64,000 nucleotides of DNA from Escherichia coli (GTDB taxonomy: Bacteria; Pseudomonadota; Gammaproteobacteria; Enterobacterales; Enterobacteriaceae), in the NCBI RefSeq assembly GCF_024700885.2, contig NZ_CP117016.1; one strand, 5' to 3'. The notes below the pieces were generated by a model. That model ran no database searches, was not told the origin of the DNA, and worked only from the letters and a program-made list of their open reading frames with translations. Of this stretch, positions 56,353 to 64,000 are shown in pieces. A program made the translations under genes and the position numbers. Numbering within the stretch: position 1 is the stretch's first letter; each line of letters begins with the position of its first letter.

Positions 56353-56991
56353 ATGAAGATGAAAAACATGTCTGAAGTGTTGACCCAAGAAAAGCTTATT
56401 TTTGTTGCCCAGAGACTAAATGCCCTCGCGCAGTCAGGCCTGACCTATTCAAAAGACGTCTTTGACAAGGAACGCTATGAAGCCTTGCGTGAAATTGCCG
56501 CTGGACTGCTGAGTTCGCAGTTTGATATTAGCCGCAATGATTTGTTTCATGTATCGGAAACGGGTTACGCGACGCCCAAAACAGATGTGCGTGCGTTTAT
56601 CCTGCGTAATAATCGTATTCTGATGGTGAAAGAGGCTGCAGATGGATTATGGAGTCTTCCTGGCGGATGGGCAGATGTTGGAGATACACCTTCTGAAGCT
56701 GTGCGTCGAGAGGTCGAAGAAGAAACCGGATTAAAAGTCAGAGTGACTAAACTATTGGGAGTTTGGGATCGTAATCTTCACGGCCATCCGCCTTTACCCT
56801 GGCATGTTTACAAGCTGATTTTTCTCTGTGAAGAAGTAGGTGGCAGCCTGTCAATCAGCCATGAGTCACTCGATGCTGATTTTTTTGATGTCAACGACCT
56901 GCCTGAATTGTCGCTTTCAAGAATTGTGCCTGAGCAGATTGCTGTCAGCCTGAGAGTAGCGAAAGGTGATGAAAAAACATGGTTTGATTAA
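56353..56991 (+). CDS. NUDIX hydrolase with Nudix_N-type N-terminal domain (prophage cargo)
   Basis: Nudix box GGWADVGDTPSEAVRREVEEETGL (Gx5Ex7REUxEExGU); N-terminal ~60 aa resemble the Nudix N-terminal extension of ADP-ribose pyrophosphatase-type enzymes. Start may be 56359 or 56368. Confidence 0.8.
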   Translation: MKMKNMSEVLTQEKLIFVAQRLNALAQSGLTYSKDVFDKERYEALREIAAGLLSSQFDISRNDLFHVSETGYATPKTDVRAFILRNNRILMVKEAADGLWSLPGGWADVGDTPSEAVRREVEEETGLKVRVTKLLGVWDRNLHGHPPLPWHVYKLIFLCEEVGGSLSISHESLDADFFDVNDLPELSLSRIVPEQIAVSLRVAKGDEKTWFD

Positions 56992-57020
56992 CTTTCTTCT
57001 GCAACCATTAAGGAATGGCA

Positions 57021-57659
57021 ATGATATTCAACGCTAAGGGTTTTTTATTCGATATGGACGGTACGCTGGTTGATTCAACAGCCGTAGTGGAAAGCGTCTG
57101 GAGAGATTTTTGTGCAGAATACGGTCTTGATACTCAGGCTGTGATTGCTTACGCACACGGGCGGCAAACGATTGATACACTGACGCATTTTATTGGTGCA
57201 GGTGAGAAAACCAATAAAATCGCGGCCTCACTCGAAGAGGTTGAAATCAACACGACAGAAGGCGTTACTGAAGTAAAAGGGGCCGCTGCACTCTTATCAA
57301 AACTGCCACCGGATAGCTGGGCACTTGTTACTTCTGCAGGCAGAATGCTTGCCGAAAACAGGATGAAAGCGGCTAATCTCCCCTTACCCATAGTAATGGT
57401 GTGTGCAGAAGATGTAATGACGGGAAAACCAAGTCCCGAGGGTTACATCAAAGCAGCTTTGGCTTTGGGCCTTGAGCCTGGTGAATGCGTGGTATTTGAG
57501 GATGCATCTGCGGGTATAAAAGCAGGGCTGGCAAGTGGAGCTTCGGTAATAGCTGTTCAGCCTGACGCTCTGGGATCATCTGAAGCCCATGCCGTCAGCG
57601 AGCTGTCTGACATTATGGTCAAGATTTCCGGAGAACGTTTCAATATCATCTGTGGTTAA
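57021..57659 (+). CDS. HAD-superfamily phosphatase (beta-phosphoglucomutase-like subfamily)
   Basis: Motif I FDMDGTLVDS, motif II VTSAG, motif IV EDASAGIKAG; ATG at 57021 is 6 nt after AAGGA; 29 bp downstream of the Nudix gene. Confidence 0.8.
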   Translation: MIFNAKGFLFDMDGTLVDSTAVVESVWRDFCAEYGLDTQAVIAYAHGRQTIDTLTHFIGAGEKTNKIAASLEEVEINTTEGVTEVKGAAALLSKLPPDSWALVTSAGRMLAENRMKAANLPLPIVMVCAEDVMTGKPSPEGYIKAALALGLEPGECVVFEDASAGIKAGLASGASVIAVQPDALGSSEAHAVSELSDIMVKISGERFNIICG

Positions 57660-58012: not shown

Positions 58013-58223
58013 TTTCATATTGGCGAGGTGACGGGAGTTAAGTAGAATGGCTGCGGGTGCTTGAGGCTATCTGTCTCAGGCATGAACACCAAAGGCAGAT
58101 AGAGAAAAGCCCCAGTTAACATTACGCGTCCTGCAAGACGCTTAACATTAATCTGAGGCCATATCTATGCTCTACACACGTAGGTTAGCCTCTTACGTGC
58201 CGAAAGGCAAGGAGAAGCAGGCT

Positions 58224-58379
58224 ATGAAGCAGCAAAAGGCGATGCTAATCGCCCTGATCGTCATCTGTTTAACCGTCATGGTGACGGCACTGGTAACGAG
58301 GAAAGACCTCTGCGAGGTACGAATCCGAACCGGCCAGACGGAGGTCGCTGTCTTCACAGCTTACGAACCTGAGGAGTAA
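58224..58379 (+). CDS. hok: Hok/Gef-family type I toxin (51 aa), near-identical to HokD/RelF
   Basis: MKQQKAMLIALIVICLTVMVTALVTRKDLCEVRIRTGQTEVAVFTAYEPEE; the in-frame upstream extension in the track (from 58167) is not the toxin start. Confidence 0.85.
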   Translation: MKQQKAMLIALIVICLTVMVTALVTRKDLCEVRIRTGQTEVAVFTAYEPEE

Positions 58380-58826: not shown

Positions 58827-59885
58827 GTGCGGGTATTACTTCGACCTGTTCTGGTACCGGAACTCGGTCTGGTTATCGTTAAGCCAGGCCGTGAATCAAT
58901 GTCAGCATTCCATAACGGCAGAATACTGGTGGAGCCGGAACCAAAAAGCATGCGTAATCTGCCGTCCGGGGTCGTTCCTGCCGCTCGCCAGCCGCTGGTG
59001 GAAGACAAAACATTGCTGCCGTTTTTCAGTAACGCACGGGTGATTCGTGCTGCTGGTGGTGCTGGTGCATTGTCTGACTGGCTGTTGCGCCATATTAAAT
59101 CCTGCCAGTGGCCACACGGCGATTATCATCACAGCGAAACCGTCATTCACCGTTATGGTACCGGCGCAATGGTGTTGTGCTGGCACTGCGACAACCAGCT
59201 GCGTGACCAGACATCCGAATCACTCGGGCAACTTGCTCATCAAAACCTGTCAGCATGGATGATTGACGTCATCGGTCACGCAATAAGCGGTACGCAGGAG
59301 CGTGAATTATCTCTGGCTGAATTATCCTGGTGGGCGGTCCGCAATCAGGTGGCGGACGCGCTACCGGAAGCGGTATTACGTCGTTCGCTGGGGTTGCGTG
59401 CGGAAAAAATTCGCTCTGTGTACAGTGAAAGCGACATCATACCGGGAGAGCAGACCGCCACCAGCATACTGAAGCAGCGCACAAAAAATATTGCGTTACT
59501 GCCTCACGTCCACCAGCAACAGAACCCACCACAGGAAAAGACGGTGGTCAGCATTGCCGTTGATCCGGAGTCACCGGCTCAGTATCTCCAGCGCCAGAAA
59601 TCACAACGGGAAGAGATGCCTGTATACACGCGCTGGGTAAAAACGCAGAAATGCATGACGTGTGGCAATCAGGCAGATGATCCGCATCACATCATTGGTC
59701 ATGGACTGGGAGGGATGGGAACAAAGGCTGATGATTTGTTTGTTATTCCGTTATGCCGTAAATGCCGTAACGAACTACATGCCGGAGTAAAAGATTTTGA
59801 AGAGAAACACGGCAGTCAGCTGTTGTTGCTGATTCGTTTTTTAATGCACGCGAGAAATTCGGGTGTTCTGAAGTGGAAAGCATAA
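58827..59885 (+). CDS. DUF968-like protein (YdfU-like, 352 aa)
   Basis: GTG at 58827 preceded by GGAGG; Cys/His-rich C-terminal segment (CMTCGNQADDPHHIIGHGLGG...CRKCRNELH); synteny hok-rem-ydfU as in Qin. Confidence 0.55.
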   Translation: MRVLLRPVLVPELGLVIVKPGRESMSAFHNGRILVEPEPKSMRNLPSGVVPAARQPLVEDKTLLPFFSNARVIRAAGGAGALSDWLLRHIKSCQWPHGDYHHSETVIHRYGTGAMVLCWHCDNQLRDQTSESLGQLAHQNLSAWMIDVIGHAISGTQERELSLAELSWWAVRNQVADALPEAVLRRSLGLRAEKIRSVYSESDIIPGEQTATSILKQRTKNIALLPHVHQQQNPPQEKTVVSIAVDPESPAQYLQRQKSQREEMPVYTRWVKTQKCMTCGNQADDPHHIIGHGLGGMGTKADDLFVIPLCRKCRNELHAGVKDFEEKHGSQLLLLIRFLMHARNSGVLKWKA

Positions 59886-60266
59886 ATGACCGAGCGCATA
59901 GAATTTGTTTTACCTTACCCGCCGACGGTGAACACTTACTGGCGACGCCGTGGCAGCACATATTTTATCTCGGAGGAGGGAAAGCGTTATCGCCGGGCTG
60001 TGGCGCTTATTGTTCGCCAGCAGCGGCTGAAATTAAGCCTGTCCGGAAGGCTGGCGATAAAGGTGATTGCAGAGCCACCGGATAAGCGTCGTCGCGACCT
60101 GGACAATATCCTGAAAGCACCGCTGGATGCGCTGACGCATGCGGGAGTGTTAATGGACGATGAGCAGTTTGATGAAATCAATATCGTTCGTGGTCAGCCA
60201 GTATCTGGTGGACGTCTGGGGGTGAAGATTTACCCCATAATGCATGAAGAGCAGGTCAAAAAATGA
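59886..60266 (+). CDS. rusA: RusA-family Holliday-junction resolvase
   Basis: 126-aa ORF with MTERIEFVLPYPPTVNTYWRRRG and the catalytic-region motif DKRRRDLDNILKAPLDALTHAGVLMDDEQF. Confidence 0.75.
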   Translation: MTERIEFVLPYPPTVNTYWRRRGSTYFISEEGKRYRRAVALIVRQQRLKLSLSGRLAIKVIAEPPDKRRRDLDNILKAPLDALTHAGVLMDDEQFDEINIVRGQPVSGGRLGVKIYPIMHEEQVKK

Positions 60267-61084
60267 AACTGGAAGATTTACCGAAATACTACTCCCCAAA
60301 ATCCCCTGGCCTGACCGATGCATCGGCCTCAACGTCAAAAGATGCGCTGAGTATCACTGATGTGATGGCCGCGCAGGGCATGACACAGAATCGGGCTGAG
60401 ATGGGGTTTTCTGCGTTCCTGGGGAAAATGGGCATCAGTATGAATGACAGGGCGCGGGCAACAGAATTACTGGCAGATTATGCACTCAGTCGGTGCGATC
60501 GTGTGGCGGCGTTGAGAAAACTTCCGGCAGAAATAAAACCGGTAGTGATGCGCATTATGGCTTCGTACGCTTTTGAGGATTATGCCCGCAGCGCAGCGAG
60601 TAAAAAGCAGTGCCCCTGTTGCCGAGGGGAAAAATTTATTGAAGGCGAAGTTTTTACAAACAAGGTTCAGTATCCGGATGGCAAGCCGCCAGTATGGGCA
60701 AAGTGTACGAAAGGTGTGTATCCGTCTTACTGGGAAGAATGGAAAAAAATTCGGGAGGTGGTGAAAGTTTCTTGTCCTGAATGTAAAGGGAAGGGGGAGA
60801 TTTCCACTGCCTGTAAAGACTGCCGTGGGCGTGGTGTTGCCATTCATCGTGAAGAGTCGGTAAAACGTGGTATGCCTGTTATCAGAGACTGCCAGCGTTG
60901 TGGTGGTCGTGGCTGTGAAAGACTACCATCAACGGAGGCATTTAATGCCATACGCAAAGTGACGAGTGCTATCACGCTTGATACGTGGAAAAAATCAGTG
61001 AAACGCTTTTACGATACGTTGGTGGTTCGGTTTGACATTGAAGAGGCATGGGCGGAGCGGCAGTTAAAGAGGGTAACGCGATAG
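60263..61084 (+). CDS. Putative late-gene antiterminator (Q-like) with four DnaJ-type CxxCxGxG zinc-finger repeats
   Basis: Position (after rusA, before a strong terminator and the late region) is that of Q; contains CPCCRGEK, CPECKGKG, CKDCRGRG and CQRCGGRG. Confidence 0.5.
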   Translation: MKLEDLPKYYSPKSPGLTDASASTSKDALSITDVMAAQGMTQNRAEMGFSAFLGKMGISMNDRARATELLADYALSRCDRVAALRKLPAEIKPVVMRIMASYAFEDYARSAASKKQCPCCRGEKFIEGEVFTNKVQYPDGKPPVWAKCTKGVYPSYWEEWKKIREVVKVSCPECKGKGEISTACKDCRGRGVAIHREESVKRGMPVIRDCQRCGGRGCERLPSTEAFNAIRKVTSAITLDTWKKSVKRFYDTLVVRFDIEEAWAERQLKRVTR

Positions 61085-61165
61085 TGTTGTTGATTTTTCC
61101 CGAATCTGTGGTAAATTTGCTCTAACGATGGGCGTTTTATGCCTGACGTTAGAAGATTTTTTACA

Positions 61166-61188
61166 CCCCGCCGCCTGGCGGGTTTTTT
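61166..61188 (+). terminator. Rho-independent terminator downstream of the Q-like gene (tR'-like)
   Basis: cccgccgcctggcggg hairpin followed by TTTTTT. Confidence 0.65.
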
Positions 61189-61310
61189 ATGACTGAAATC
61201 GCGTCAGTACAGTAAACGCGCTGGTGGCGGTGAATACCTGTCTTTCAGCTTGCTGGCTTTTTCGACAAGAGTTATTGGTGTGTCACGTTAACCGGAAAAG
61301 GGAAAAAGAC

Positions 61311-61508
61311 ATGCTAAAACAGCAGGATATGACAGAAACCGCCAGAGTGGTGTTTAATGAATTAAGCGTTACCGAACCGGCGACAGTCGGGGAGATAGCG
61401 CAGAATACTTACCTTTCACGCGAACGCTGCCAGTTAATACTGACCCAGCTGGTTATGGCGGGTCTGGCAGACTATCAGTTCGGTTGTTACAGACGCCTTC
61501 AGTCCTGA
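61311..61508 (+). CDS. Small hypothetical protein (65 aa)
   Basis: ATG at 61311 after AAGGGA (MLKQQDMTETARVVFNELSVTEPATVGEIAQN...); ends inside a terminator hairpin. Confidence 0.4.
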   Translation: MLKQQDMTETARVVFNELSVTEPATVGEIAQNTYLSRERCQLILTQLVMAGLADYQFGCYRRLQS

Positions 61509-61518
61509 AGGCTTTTTT
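61494..61518 (+). terminator. Rho-independent terminator
   Basis: gccttcagtcctgaaggc hairpin followed by TTTTTTATTT. Confidence 0.65.
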
Positions 61519-61658
61519 ATTTGTGGTAAATGGGCGGCTGGTGGGTGTTAGGGGCACCCACCAGCCATCTGCTCATGCGTTGGGTTCACAAGCAAACCTC
61601 AGGCCCACTGCTTTGCGCAAAAGCAGAATGAGCCTATCAGAGACAGGCTTAATGATCC

Positions 61659-62708
61659 ATGCTTAATACTGTAAAAATATCCAGTTGTGAGTTAATCAAC
61701 GCCGACTGCCTGGAATTTATCCGGTCGTTACCCGAAAATTCTGTTGACCTGATAGTCACGGACCCGCCGTACTTTAAAGTGAAGCCTGAGGGCTGGGATA
61801 ACCAGTGGAAGGGCGACGATGATTACCTGAAGTGGCTGGACCAGTGTCTGGCGCAGTTCTGGCGGGTGCTGAAACCTGCCGGAAGTCTTTACCTGTTCTG
61901 TGGTCATCGCCTGGCATCTGATATCGAAATCATGATGCGTGAACGCTTCAGTGTGCTGAACCATATTATCTGGGCGAAGCCGTCCGGACGCTGGAACGGA
62001 TGCAACAAGGAAAGCCTGCGGGCGTATTTCCCCGCCACAGAGCGCATTCTGTTCGCGGAACATTATCAGGGGCCGTATCGTCCGAAAGATGCCGGGTATG
62101 CGGCGAAGGGCAGTGCACTGAAACAGCATGTGATGGCCCCGCTGATTTCTTACTTTCGTGATGCGCGCGCGGCCCTGGGGATAACGGCAAAACAGATTGC
62201 AGATGCCACAGGAAAGAAAAACATGGTGTCGCACTGGTTCAGTGCCAGTCAGTGGCAGCTACCGAATGAAAGCGATTATCTGAAATTACAGGCGCTGTTT
62301 GCCCGGGTGGCAGAAGAGAAGCATCGGCGTGGTGAACTGGAAAAGCTCCACCACCAGCTGGTGGATACGTATACCTCACTGAACCGGCAGTATGCGGAGC
62401 TGCTGAGTGAATATAAACATCTGCGGCGGTATTTTGGCGTGACGGTGCAGGTGCCGTATACCGATGTGTGGACGCATAAACCGGTGCAGTTCTATCCCGG
62501 GAAACATCTGTGCGAAAAACCGGCAGAAATGCTGCAGCAGATAATCAGCGCAAGCAGTCGTCCGGGTGACCTGGTTGCAGATTTTTTCATGGGGTCGGGT
62601 TCAACGGTAAAAGCGGCGATGGCACTGGGGCGTCGTGCGATTGGCGTTGAACTGGAGACCGGACGTTTTGAGCAGACAGTCAGGGAAGTTCAGGATTTAA
62701 TCGTTTGA
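61659..62708 (+). CDS. Orphan DNA methyltransferase (beta-class N6-adenine/N4-cytosine type)
   Basis: Motif IV DPPY (LIVTDPPYF) near the N-terminus and AdoMet motif I FFMGSGST near the C-terminus (beta-class order); no adjacent restriction endonuclease gene. Confidence 0.8.
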   Translation: MLNTVKISSCELINADCLEFIRSLPENSVDLIVTDPPYFKVKPEGWDNQWKGDDDYLKWLDQCLAQFWRVLKPAGSLYLFCGHRLASDIEIMMRERFSVLNHIIWAKPSGRWNGCNKESLRAYFPATERILFAEHYQGPYRPKDAGYAAKGSALKQHVMAPLISYFRDARAALGITAKQIADATGKKNMVSHWFSASQWQLPNESDYLKLQALFARVAEEKHRRGELEKLHHQLVDTYTSLNRQYAELLSEYKHLRRYFGVTVQVPYTDVWTHKPVQFYPGKHLCEKPAEMLQQIISASSRPGDLVADFFMGSGSTVKAAMALGRRAIGVELETGRFEQTVREVQDLIV

Positions 62709-62757
62709 AACGGATGAGATTGCAGAATTAATTACGCACCATTATTATTCTGCTTCC

Positions 62758-62833
62758 GGCCCTTTAGCTCAGTGGTGAGAGCGAGCGACTCATAATCGCC
62801 AGGTCGCTGGTTCAAATCCAGCAAGGGCCACCA
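62758..62833 (+). tRNA. Prophage tRNA with CAU anticodon (Ile2/lysidine-type, ileZ-like; Met not excluded)
   Basis: 76 nt folding into a cloverleaf by hand: acceptor GGCCCTT/AAGGGCC, D-stem GCTC/GAGC, anticodon loop CTCATAA, T-arm GCTGG-TTCAAAT-CCAGC, 3' ACCA. Confidence 0.8.
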
Positions 62834-62933
62834 TCACAAACCGCCATTAGCTTATCAGGAAGAGCAGACGACACGATAACAGGGTTGTTGGTGCGGGGGC
62901 GGGTCCCCGATGGCGGTCCATTATCGGTATTCA

Positions 62934-63010
62934 GCGTTGTTAGCTCAGCCGGACAGAGCAATTGCCTTCTAAGCAATCGGTCACTGGTTCGAATCCAGTA
63001 CAGCGCGCCA
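62934..63010 (+). tRNA. Prophage tRNA-Arg (UCU)
   Basis: 77 nt: acceptor GCGTTGT/ACAGCGC, D-arm TAGCTCAGCCGGACAGAGCA, anticodon loop CTTCTAA, T-arm ACTGG-TTCGAAT-CCAGT, 3' GCCA; related to argU-type tRNAs. Confidence 0.8.
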
Positions 63011-63117
63011 TATTCATTCTTCCAGATTCCTTTCGGCAGAGCCTTATACTGAAATATACCTGGCTCAGGATATTGTTGAAAATATTATATGTTTGTCAAA
63101 AATAAAAGTTCTGTTAA

Positions 63118-63474
63118 GTGTTGATTGAGTGTTTGTTATACGGTCTAATGGTTTTTTCAGCATTAAATATTTATCATTCATATGGTGTGGGTAGAGTGAA
63201 TATTGATGAGGCGTCGGGGTGTTTCATCCTTAGGCAGCGTATTGATATAGTCAATGCAGAACGAGCAAAGGCCTTCAGCCGTTTGACAGTTTTGTTCTGT
63301 ACTCCTGATCGTCTTTCGGGAAGAGACGTTATTATTCTGAATAGTGATGCTATACAGAGGGTTTGCGATGAGTTCATGGTGGCTAATTCAGAATTATTTG
63401 CTCTTGTTCAGGAGTACAACAGAATAGCCAGGACCTGTGGTATGGATGAACTTCGGATTACTCATCTGGGGTAG
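63118..63474 (+). CDS. Hypothetical AT-rich cargo ORF (118 aa) in the post-tRNA slot
   Basis: ORF directly downstream of the tRNA pair; low GC; no recognisable motif (MLIECLLYGLMVFSALNIYHSYGVGRVNIDEASGCFILRQRIDIVNAERAK...). Start uncertain (alternative Met at 63148). Confidence 0.4.
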   Translation: MLIECLLYGLMVFSALNIYHSYGVGRVNIDEASGCFILRQRIDIVNAERAKAFSRLTVLFCTPDRLSGRDVIILNSDAIQRVCDEFMVANSELFALVQEYNRIARTCGMDELRITHLG

Positions 63475-64000
63475 ATACATATCTGGATTATCACCGGTTA
63501 CGGTAAAAAGTGATTGCTTACTGTTTTTGTGAATGGCATTGCAGCAGCCGGATAATGTCAGTGCTGGCTGACGGTGTGCTGGTGGCGGGTGTGGTGGTTG
63601 CTGCTTTCCCGTTGCTGAAAAAGAAAACGCCAGACTGTTAGCCGGGTATCAGTTAGCGGGAGAAATTTTTAAATACTTCACAATTCAGGCGGTTGACTGT
63701 TGTCTGGTTTGCGGGGAGTTTGTTAAAAGAAACTGGCATGGTGAATCCCCCTGTGCGGAGGGGCAATCAGCGAGTAGGTATATGGGATAATCGCGGATTC
63801 AGGTGCTGGTACTGAATTCACCGGGAGGCACCCGGCACCATGCAATGGCACATAGCGCCACTCTCCAGCCCCTCTCCGGAGGGGCTGTTTATATTGATTT
63901 TGTCAGATGTGAGTAAACTCCTTATGGACTTTGTTGTTTTAGCCCATAAGGACATATTTGCAGAGTGCAACGGTTATTAAAGCATTCATTCAATACGTTA

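Follow-up and report, generated by a model that had tools for sequence, protein, structure and literature searches.

The 273-aa protein encoded directly downstream of rusA in a 64,000-nucleotide stretch of E. coli DNA (hereafter, the window) is, with a probability we put at about 93%, the late-gene antiterminator Q of a lambdoid prophage, of the lambda Q family and in its long, phi80/QuuQ form. The protein belongs to that family, is collinear with lambda Q, has the same fold and is followed by the cis elements of a Q cassette; antitermination activity is most likely by homology with Q-lambda. It is thus an already known and annotated Q, neither a divergent nor a new family. The coordinates of the locus are collected in Table 1.

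Table 1. Features of the Q locus, in window coordinates
Feature	Position	Strand	Remarks
rusA (Holliday junction resolvase)	59886..60266	+	Pfam PF05866, E 2e-17; directly upstream of Q
Q antiterminator gene	60263..61084	+	273 aa; long phi80/QuuQ form within the lambda Q family (PF03589)
Codons 1-44 of Q	60263..60394	+	counterpart of the lambda Q segment that refolds to form the RNA-exit-channel torus (nozzle)
Insertion relative to lambda Q	60602..60808	+	aa 114-182, between lambda residues 113 and 117; phmmer to 7ubm_Q, MAFFT, AF2
CxxC motif 1	60611-60634	+	in insertion
CxxC motif 2	60773-60796	+	in insertion
Zinc-ribbon arm homologous to that of lambda Q	60812..60913	+	motifs 3 and 4
Motif 3, CKDCRGRG	60812-60835	+	arm
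Motif 4, CQRCGGRG	60890-60913	+	arm
pR'-like late promoter	61090..61117	+	alignment with lambda, P22, Evi, Klebsiella phage, mEp460 and K-12 Qin
-35, TTGATT	61090-61095	+	followed by 16-nt spacer
Candidate Q-binding element	61096..61111	+	in promoter spacer; TGG just upstream of -10
Core of candidate Q-binding element, TCCCGAA	61098-61104	+	
Extended -10, TGn	61109-61111	+	
-10, TAAATT	61112-61117	+	identical to lambda pR'
Sigma70-dependent pause element AACGAT with GGG discriminator-like triplet	61124..61132	+	identical to lambda pR' +1..+9
Intrinsic terminator, tR'-like	61167..61188	+	6 G-C pairs, 4-nt loop, T6; ends at ~+65 from putative start
Small winged-helix-like ORF in late leader	61311-61508		ends at second terminator-like hairpin
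Second terminator-like hairpin and T-run	61495..61520	+	end of small winged-helix-like ORF

A Pfam scan of the protein gave PF03589 (Q-lambda, 'Antiterm') as the sole family above threshold (170.4 bits against a gathering cutoff of 26.7, E 9e-51), with no match at E<=0.1 to Q21 (PF06530) or Q82 (PF06323), families defined as in PMC9388147. The protein also matched PHROG 127, 'anti-termination protein Q-like' (E 8e-110), and a phmmer search against the PDB found lambda Q (7ubm, E 2e-38). The first-pass annotation had correctly placed a 273-aa ORF between rusA and a terminator, and had offered as one possibility a Q family that has diverged and whose zinc domain resembles that of DnaJ. The protein is a Q and the likeness to DnaJ is present locally, but it is an ordinary lambda-family Q; the HMM comparison with Q families and the DnaJ cysteine-rich domain that had been proposed returned a family already known.

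Homology with lambda Q (207 aa; PDB 4MO1, 7UBJ-7UBN) extends from end to end, residues 1-113 of the query corresponding to lambda 1-113 and residues 183-273 to lambda 117-207 (phmmer). As in lambda Q and P22 gp23, which are members of the same family with the same fold, an N-terminal torus segment is followed by a helix-turn-helix body, a CxxCxGxG...CxxCxGxG arm and a C-terminal VTR. The fold is that of Q-lambda: a four-helix body with a helix-turn-helix, and a zinc-ribbon arm with four Cys ligands. Identity to the lambda Q/P22 gp23 group was ~30% by tblastn, where the whole query with its insertion was used, and 39% over aligned MAFFT columns. The best-kept segment consists of codons 1-44 (52% identity to lambda Q); residues 1-44 of lambda Q refold into a torus, or nozzle, at the RNA-exit channel (PMC9388147). 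Positions with functional roles in lambda Q (PMC9388147) that are kept in the alignment include G39, S110-A112, the four zinc cysteines, L202 and T206, while several residues implicated in torus contacts are altered (C53L, H56M, L58I and V6L).

The protein contains four CxxC motifs, at aa 117, 171, 184 and 210, a number reached or exceeded in only 0.06% of composition-preserving shuffles. All four are conserved among database homologues, 110 of 120 of which have exactly four. The first-pass annotation had described four evenly spaced CxxCxGxG repeats. The count of four CxxC holds; the start-to-start gaps are uneven (54, 13 and 26 residues), and the strict CxxCxGxG pattern is found in three of the four (CPECKGKG, CKDCRGRG and CQRCGGRG), the first motif reading CPCCRGEK. 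The accompanying statement that these motifs stand in place of the zinc motif of lambda Q proved mistaken, as the lambda Q ribbon, CRDCHGTG...CGRCKGVG, is itself two CxxCxGxG motifs, which phmmer aligns to motifs 3 and 4. Cysteines C184, C187, C210 and C213 correspond to lambda Q C118, C121, C144 and C147.

Motifs 1 and 2 lie in an insertion of 66-69 aa that lambda Q and P22 gp23 lack, placed where the body of lambda Q meets its arm. When the insertion alone was used in a tblastn search, 53 phage records matched, and every annotated match among those listed was a Q or antitermination gene, including those of phi80 and Gifsy-2. Insertion lengths form a graded series across the homologue alignments, with motifs 1 and 2 present or absent jointly in long and short forms. 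In both AF2 models, 12-residue strands (125-136 and 159-170) sit between the two motifs. They are predicted to form a self-paired long beta-hairpin, because there is no other long strand to serve as partner, and so would bring motifs 1 and 2 together. On the strength of these models and of homology with lambda Q, the most plausible reading of the four motifs is a tandem pair of zinc ribbons, 1+2 and 3+4, and we interpret the insertion as a second ribbon, in which motifs 1 and 2 may clasp the base of the hairpin. A BLASTP comparison of the insertion with the lambda-like ribbon found similarity at the level of the motif alone (12 aa, E 0.005), and beyond the motif gave no evidence for or against an internal duplication.

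For the arm, a nested zinc pairing (1+4 and 2+3), which would make it a true DnaJ-type cysteine-rich domain, is unlikely. Motifs 2 and 3, 13 residues apart, do align with the single zinc site of anti-TRAP (NCBIfam RtpA, E 6e-5; PDB 2bx9), one BLASTP alignment matches Q motifs 2, 3 and 4 to DnaJ motifs 2, 3 and 4, and the entry and exit of the arm must be close together, as they are in DnaJ. However, the lambda Q equivalents of motifs 3 and 4 jointly bind one zinc in the ribbon formed by residues 114-152, the single zinc ribbon of the lambda Q structures (PMC9388147). The joint occurrence and loss of motifs 1 and 2, and the hairpin strands that are predicted to draw them together, likewise argue against nesting. 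The Pfam alignment, moreover, sets Q motifs 2-4 on DnaJ motifs 1-3, which would equate Q motifs 3 and 4 with the second zinc site (Zn2) of DnaJ.

The proposed tandem ribbons would place the second one at a surface that contacts polymerase. Lambda Q residues 110-112, 117 and 122-126 touch the zinc-binding domain of the RNA polymerase beta' subunit (PMC9388147), and in the alignment the 66-69 aa insertion falls among them; polymerase engagement could therefore differ in detail from that of lambda Q. A stronger version, in which the insertion gives phi80/QuuQ-type Q proteins a mode of polymerase or DNA engagement unlike that of the solved Q-lambda complexes, such as an extra contact with upstream DNA or with the beta' zinc-binding domain, or an altered dependence on NusA, we consider rather doubtful, as we do the idea that the Q arm is related to the DnaJ cysteine-rich domain by circular permutation. 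Among the structures retrieved from the PDB, none was of a long-form Q.

The closest parallels to the window Q are two known long-form proteins. Phi80 Q (gp17, 269 aa), also a PF03589 member, is 40% identical over its full length, including an insertion in the same place that is 55.6% identical to a 72-aa insertion query (tblastn). It differs in its third motif, which is CxC (SCRCHGKG) rather than CxxC. Phi80 Q was reportedly studied alongside lambda Q by Guo and Roberts in 2004 (J Bacteriol 186:3599, as cited in PMC9388147). QuuQ (YdfT, 250 aa), from the K-12 Qin cryptic prophage, is likewise 40% identical over its full length and has four CxxC motifs; its insertion is ~23 aa shorter, as is the hairpin between motifs 1 and 2. 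Qin and the window both carry a DUF968 gene and hokD upstream of Q, but the window has rusA between the DUF968 gene and Q, whereas Qin does not.

Downstream of Q, the sequence was assigned to a cassette of promoter, candidate Q-binding element, pause element and terminator, in a layout that is conserved in seven phages and prophages. The string TAAATT-N6-AACGATGGG, which joins the -10 to the pause element, is identical to that of lambda (0 mismatches) and matches once in the whole window; AACGAT starts 6 nt after the -10, the same spacing as in lambda, and P22 shares the -10, the spacing and the AACGAT with GGG. The sigma-dependent pause element of lambda is defined in PMC4005639. By this alignment, position 61124 would be the transcription start, and the pause would be placed accordingly. 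A generic promoter scan of 60900-61700 called no promoter; it was set aside because its threshold of 9/12 hexamer matches excludes TTGATT/TAAATT, which scores 8/12 and relies on the extended -10, and because lambda pR' has the same TAAATT. The promoter was placed instead by alignment to lambda and its relatives.

The element in the promoter spacer is a candidate Q-binding site by its position, which matches that of the site TCGCGGA annotated in the phi80 record, and by its conservation, TTTCCCGAA being kept in Evi, Klebsiella ST974 phage and Erwinia phage 49. The Q-binding sequence of lambda and P22 is different. The most terminator-like site in the region is a G+C-rich hairpin (61167-61182) followed by T6 up to 61188, and comparable terminators lie 3' of the Q genes of Evi, Klebsiella phage, mEp460, K-12 Qin, P22 and phi80. 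The first-pass annotation had anticipated a tR'-like terminator here and a qut-like site and late promoter in 61085-61165, and at the sequence level the putative promoter, candidate Q-binding site and AACGAT support this. The phi80 record annotates pR', Q-binding site and terminator in the same layout, with the Q-binding site just past the -35, an AACGnT pause-like element and a terminator ~60 nt downstream; the two cassettes differ in spacer length (16 nt in the window, 17 nt in phi80), in Q-binding core (candidate TCCCGAA versus annotated TCGCGGA) and in pause-like element (AACGAT versus AACGCT). The Qin leader (AACGATGGGC...CGTT...terminator) can be aligned with that of the window, but its promoter spacer (TTTTCAAAAAATATGGA), and hence presumably its Q-binding site, differs. 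The first terminator of P22 is close to the start, as in the window, while that of lambda is farther than the ~65 nt seen here, none comparable being present in the first ~110 nt of its leader. A search of 60900-64000 against Rfam returned no family for the short pR'-tR' transcript.

The Q gene is common. DNA at least 80% identical to it was found in 2651 of 5426 complete E. coli genomes, where, among the matches listed, the gene is annotated as 'antitermination protein', and 273 aa is also the length of the dominant database clusters, which hold thousands of member sequences. In strain 600029, whose prophage has a Q locus 100% identical to that of the window, the PGAP annotation gives Q this same label and the order rusA, Q, methylase, tRNAs, holin, lysozyme, Rz, terminase.

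We regard it as very unlikely that the gene is an inactive relic in a defective prophage, as in much of K-12 Qin, with downstream signals that no longer serve a lytic switch. Related cassettes do occur in cryptic prophages such as Qin, and the window, ending ahead of the lysis and structural genes, does not show directly whether this copy is complete. Yet the ORF is full length, and neither its four Cys motifs nor its conserved N- and C-terminal ends are damaged; the promoter, pause element and terminator are intact and match the sequenced phage record Evi; and late genes follow the identical locus in strain 600029.

The resemblance to DnaJ is real but local, judging from the sequences, and is common to lambda Q. 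The whole protein scores 30.0 bits on PF00684 (DnaJ_CXXCXGXG), below the cutoff of 32.7, and the isolated arm 33.8 bits, just above it; there are also weak matches to DnaJ and anti-TRAP NCBIfam profiles. Lambda Q (23.1 bits) and phi80 Q (24.0) give similarly weak matches to PF00684, QuuQ scores 35.4, and the motif is therefore a Q-family trait that does not indicate chaperone function. The zinc-knuckle motif CxxCxGxG is one that the window Q has in common with the DnaJ cysteine-rich domain (PF00684; PDB 1EXK), anti-TRAP and BSD2. In E. coli DnaJ, however, the motifs start at ~144, 161, 183 and 197 (gaps of ~17, 22 and 14, versus 54, 13 and 26) and zinc pairing is nested; that proposed for the window Q, whose cysteine-rich domain is embedded in a Q-lambda body, is tandem. 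A full-text search of the literature found no text joining Q antitermination protein, zinc and DnaJ.

The other option of the first-pass annotation, a DnaJ-like zinc-finger chaperone (or co-chaperone) with the true late antiterminator elsewhere, is barely credible: beyond the profile matches just given, one database source does call a homologue 'chaperone protein DnaJ', but the protein shares its fold and whole-length homology with lambda Q, lacks the J domain, G/F region and C-terminal substrate-binding domains of DnaJ (no match to PF00226 or DnaJ_C at E<=0.1), resembles E. coli DnaJ by BLASTP over 26-58 residues around the motifs alone, and has no further Q-family gene beside it, either elsewhere in the window or in the PGAP-annotated prophage of strain 600029.

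The mechanism of Q-lambda most likely applies to this Q, by analogy. RNA polymerase would initiate at the pR'-like promoter, and sigma70 would rebind AACGAT (61124-61129), producing a pause at ~+16. The helix-turn-helix body and zinc-ribbon arm of Q would then bind the site in the spacer, with TCCCGAA as candidate core. Bound Q would make contact with polymerase at the pause and would fold its 44 conserved N-terminal residues into a nozzle at the RNA-exit channel. Polymerase so modified would pass the terminator at 61167-61188 and later ones, and transcribe the methylase, tRNA, lysis and morphogenesis genes.

As a discovery, a common and correctly annotated Q antiterminator, with DNA at least 80% identical in about half of complete E. 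coli genomes, carries little weight. The locus does correct a tempting misreading, in that CxxCxGxG here does not mean a DnaJ chaperone, because lambda Q bears the same motif. A late promoter, pause element, candidate Q-binding site and terminator are now located for this prophage type, and a widespread long form of the Q-lambda family appears to carry a second zinc ribbon on the surface that contacts polymerase. The cassette sits where Shiga-toxin expression is controlled in Stx phages, which lends the correct typing of Q variants some practical relevance.

At the upstream end of the gene, the stop codon of rusA and the ATG of Q overlap as ATGA. A second Q gene to the right was ruled out, the ORFs there encoding a small winged-helix-like protein, an N6/N4 DNA methylase, a DUF3927 protein and one protein with no Pfam family; the first of these lies in the late leader and ends at a second terminator-like hairpin.

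The gene in the late antiterminator position encodes a 273-aa protein, and its start codon and the rusA stop codon overlap (ATGA; RusA, PF05866). The first-pass annotation had described an ORF of this size after rusA and before a strong terminator, and both were confirmed, the latter as a hairpin followed by T6. When the protein was searched against Pfam, PF03589 ("Antitermination protein Q") was the sole family over threshold (170.4 bits; cutoff, 26.7), and no match to Q21 (PF06530) or Q82 (PF06323) was found; PF03589 defines the Q-lambda family, separate from these two (PMC9388147). The protein also matched PHROG 127 (Q-like, E = 8e-110) and, in a PDB sequence search, lambda Q (7ubm, E = 2e-38). 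The two proteins are collinear: residues 1–113 align with lambda Q 1–113 and residues 183–273 with lambda Q 117–207. The best kept segment is residues 1–44 (52% identity); in lambda Q, the N-terminal 44 residues fold into the RNA-exit-channel nozzle upon NusA binding (PMC9388147). G39, L202, T206, and the four zinc ligands of lambda Q are retained as well. Over the full length, the protein is 40% identical both to phi80 gp17 (269 aa) and to QuuQ/YdfT (250 aa), the Q protein of K-12 Qin. We conclude that it is an ordinary lambda Q-family protein of the phi80/QuuQ form that had already been annotated. Of the earlier suggestion of a divergent Q family, Q stands but divergence does not, since PF03589, PHROG 127, and the lambda Q alignment place the protein clearly in a known family.

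The first-pass annotation had offered as an alternative a chaperone-like protein, with the true Q elsewhere, and had proposed comparing profiles of Q families and the DnaJ CR domain. The DnaJ profile (PF00684) gave 30.0 bits with the whole protein, below its cutoff of 32.7, and 33.8 bits with the isolated zinc-ribbon part (the arm); known Q proteins scored 23.1 (lambda Q), 24.0 (phi80 Q), and 35.4 (QuuQ). BLASTP alignment with E. coli DnaJ was limited to 26–58 residues around the cysteine motifs, and neither a J domain nor a DnaJ C-terminal domain was found in the Pfam search. There is a genuine resemblance to DnaJ, but it is a local one, shown by the Q-lambda family as a whole, and it does not imply chaperone function. 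The chaperone reading was rejected because the protein has no J domain, belongs to PF03589, and shares only a local motif likeness with DnaJ; nor does any other Q-family gene lie to its right within the 64-kb window. Two genes upstream of Q is a 352-aa DUF968 protein, a YdfU homologue with a weak HNHc_6 match. Its counterpart in phage Evi (1–217 of record L003) likewise carries the label "Phage antitermination protein Q," probably an annotation error, which could misdirect searches for a second Q.

The protein had been credited with four evenly spaced CxxCxGxG repeats. Four CxxC motifs (1–4, from the N to the C terminus) are indeed present, starting at residues 117, 171, 184, and 210; four arise by chance in 0.06% of shuffles of the protein, and all are kept in 110 of 120 database homologues. 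Only three are strict CxxCxGxG (CPECKGKG, CKDCRGRG, and CQRCGGRG), motif 1 being CPCCRGEK, and the gaps between motif starts are uneven (54, 13, and 26 residues). The signature had also been set against the zinc motif of lambda Q, mistakenly: the lambda Q ribbon itself reads CRDCHGTG...CGRCKGVG, so CxxCxGxG is the lambda Q zinc motif and no alternative to it. Its homologues here are motifs 3 and 4.

A 66- to 69-aa insertion (aa 114/115 to 180/182) contains motifs 1 and 2. It falls between lambda residues 113 and 117, where the helix-turn-helix "body" and the "arm" of lambda Q meet. Among aligned phage Q proteins, insertion length is graded: none in lambda and P22, intermediate in mEp554, mEp460/QuuQ, ST104, Erwinia phage, and LMessi, and longest in the window protein, Evi, and Klebsiella phage. 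Motifs 1 and 2 are either both present or both absent. The insertion alone, used as a query, matched 53 phage records, and the annotated matches among those listed were all in Q/antitermination genes, including those of phi80 and Gifsy-2. In phi80 gp17 (L013 574–1380, SCRCHGKG) and phage LMessi Q (L009 601–1380, RCRCGGKG), the third zinc motif is CxC, not CxxC, so knuckle spacing at this ligand pair varies within the family. AlphaFold predictions of the whole protein and of the arm alone placed two 12-residue strands (125–136 and 159–170) between motifs 1 and 2, and neither prediction contained another long strand able to pair with them. From these models we infer that the strands pair with each other in a hairpin, held at its base by motifs 1 and 2. 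On that reading, the arm would consist of two zinc ribbons in tandem (1+2 and 3+4), in contrast to the nested pairing of DnaJ (1+4 and 2+3).

The late regulatory cassette beside the Q gene is lambda-type and intact. A late promoter and a qut-like site had been anticipated within 61085–61165, and a lambda-type promoter, AACGAT, and a candidate binding element were found there. Lambda pR′ comprises TTGACT, a 17-nt spacer, TAAATT, TGACTC, and AACGAT-GGG. In lambda, AACGAT (+1 to +6) is a −10-like element that causes the σ70-dependent pause at +16 on which Q loading depends, and the GGG after it acts in a discriminator-like manner (PMC4005639). The 64-kb window holds a single, mismatch-free copy of TAAATT-N6-AACGATGGG, and the layout is common to regions 3′ of Q genes in Evi, Klebsiella phage, mEp460, K-12 Qin, lambda, and P22. 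The promoter spacer holds TTTCCCGAA, which is kept in the closest relatives (Evi, Klebsiella phage, and Erwinia phage 49) and stands where the phi80 record annotates the Q-binding site TCGCGGA; on this sequence likeness, we propose it as a candidate Q-binding element.

Features of the Q locus and its surroundings
Feature	Position (nt)	Strand	Remark
NUDIX hydrolase and HAD hydrolase	56353-57659	+	cargo-like; early-right region
Hok/Gef toxin gene	58167-58379	+	PF01848; cargo-like; early-right region
DUF968 protein	58827-59885	+	
Q gene	60263-61084	+	
Insertion with motifs 1 and 2	60602-60808		
Late promoter −35, TTGATT	61090-61095	+	directly after Q stop codon
Promoter spacer, 16 nt	between 61095 and 61112	+	ends in TGG; read from sequence
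Late promoter −10, TAAATT	61112-61117	+	then TGCTCT
Pause element, AACGAT-GGG	61124-61132	+	after TGCTCT; identical in lambda pR′
Expected short transcript, ~65 nt	61124-61188	+	promoter to terminator
Terminator-like hairpin, CCCGCC-GCCT-GGCGGG + T6	61167-61188	+	read from sequence
65-aa ORF	61311-61508	+	after Q-controlled promoter
Second terminator-like hairpin	61495-61520		at the end of the 65-aa ORF
N6/N4 DNA methyltransferase	61659-62708	+	PF01555, E = 1e-41
tRNA-Met (CAT), ARAGORN	62758-62833	+	late leader
tRNA-Arg (TCT), ARAGORN	62934-63010	+	late leader
STnc100 sRNA	63707-63896	+	Rfam, 132 bits, E = 3e-30

By homology with Q-lambda (PMC9388147), polymerase at the late promoter would pause once σ70 region 2 rebinds AACGAT. 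Q would bind the spacer element via its helix-turn-helix body and zinc-ribbon arm, contacting the paused complex; its N-terminal segment would form the RNA-exit-channel nozzle, blocking formation of the terminator hairpin, and the modified polymerase would read past this terminator and those beyond it to reach the late genes. Lambda Q contacts the β′ zinc-binding domain of RNAP through residues 110–112, 117, and 122–126 (PMC9388147), and the insertion falls among them, which may mean, speculatively, that it modifies this contact or adds a contact with DNA. This effect is the only part with residual novelty; PDB searches returned no structure of a long-form Q.

Counted from the inferred start (61124), the terminator ends at about +65. 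Folding of the intervening transcript (−21.9 kcal/mol, z = −2.8) predicts a stem-loop at the 5′ end and the terminator hairpin, joined by an A/U-rich linker. The transcript is shaped like an Hfq-type sRNA with a U6 tail, and its leader aligns with regions 3′ of quuQ in K-12 Qin and mEp460 and with those of Evi and Klebsiella phage; no Rfam family matched it. As a precedent, processing of the PR′-tR′ transcript of Stx phages yields the regulatory sRNA StxS (PMC7547250).

A prophage of E. coli strain 600029 carries a Q locus with 100% identity to this one; there, PGAP names the Q counterpart "antitermination protein" (WP_000762881.1). Among 5426 complete E. coli genomes, 2651 carry DNA matching the Q gene at 80% identity or more. 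The PGAP order in strain 600029 is DUF968, RusA, "antitermination protein," hypothetical protein, DNA methyltransferase, tRNA-Ile, tRNA-Arg, and DUF3927, then a cut pseudogene and IraM (both on the opposite strand), SASA esterase, holin, YdfR, lysozyme, further lysis genes, and terminase. In the window, the 65-aa ORF gave weak winged-helix matches (TrmB/MarR, E = 0.002–0.04); the methyltransferase follows it, likewise downstream of the Q-controlled promoter. Two tRNA genes follow the methylase and precede the late genes, and the PGAP call of Ile for the first in strain 600029 suggests a lysidine-type Ile tRNA. Stx phages carry tRNAs upstream of stx, in the same slot. Farther right is a strong match to STnc100. 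In a 2026 preprint, STnc100 is placed in one group with the prophage sRNAs PasD1/PasD2, which the authors report at no more than 10 kb from PF03589 Q genes in >98% of cases; the match here fits this proximity. Upstream, the hydrolases take their names from PGAP in the strain 600029 prophage, and the layout resembles the hokD, DUF968, Q order of K-12 Qin.
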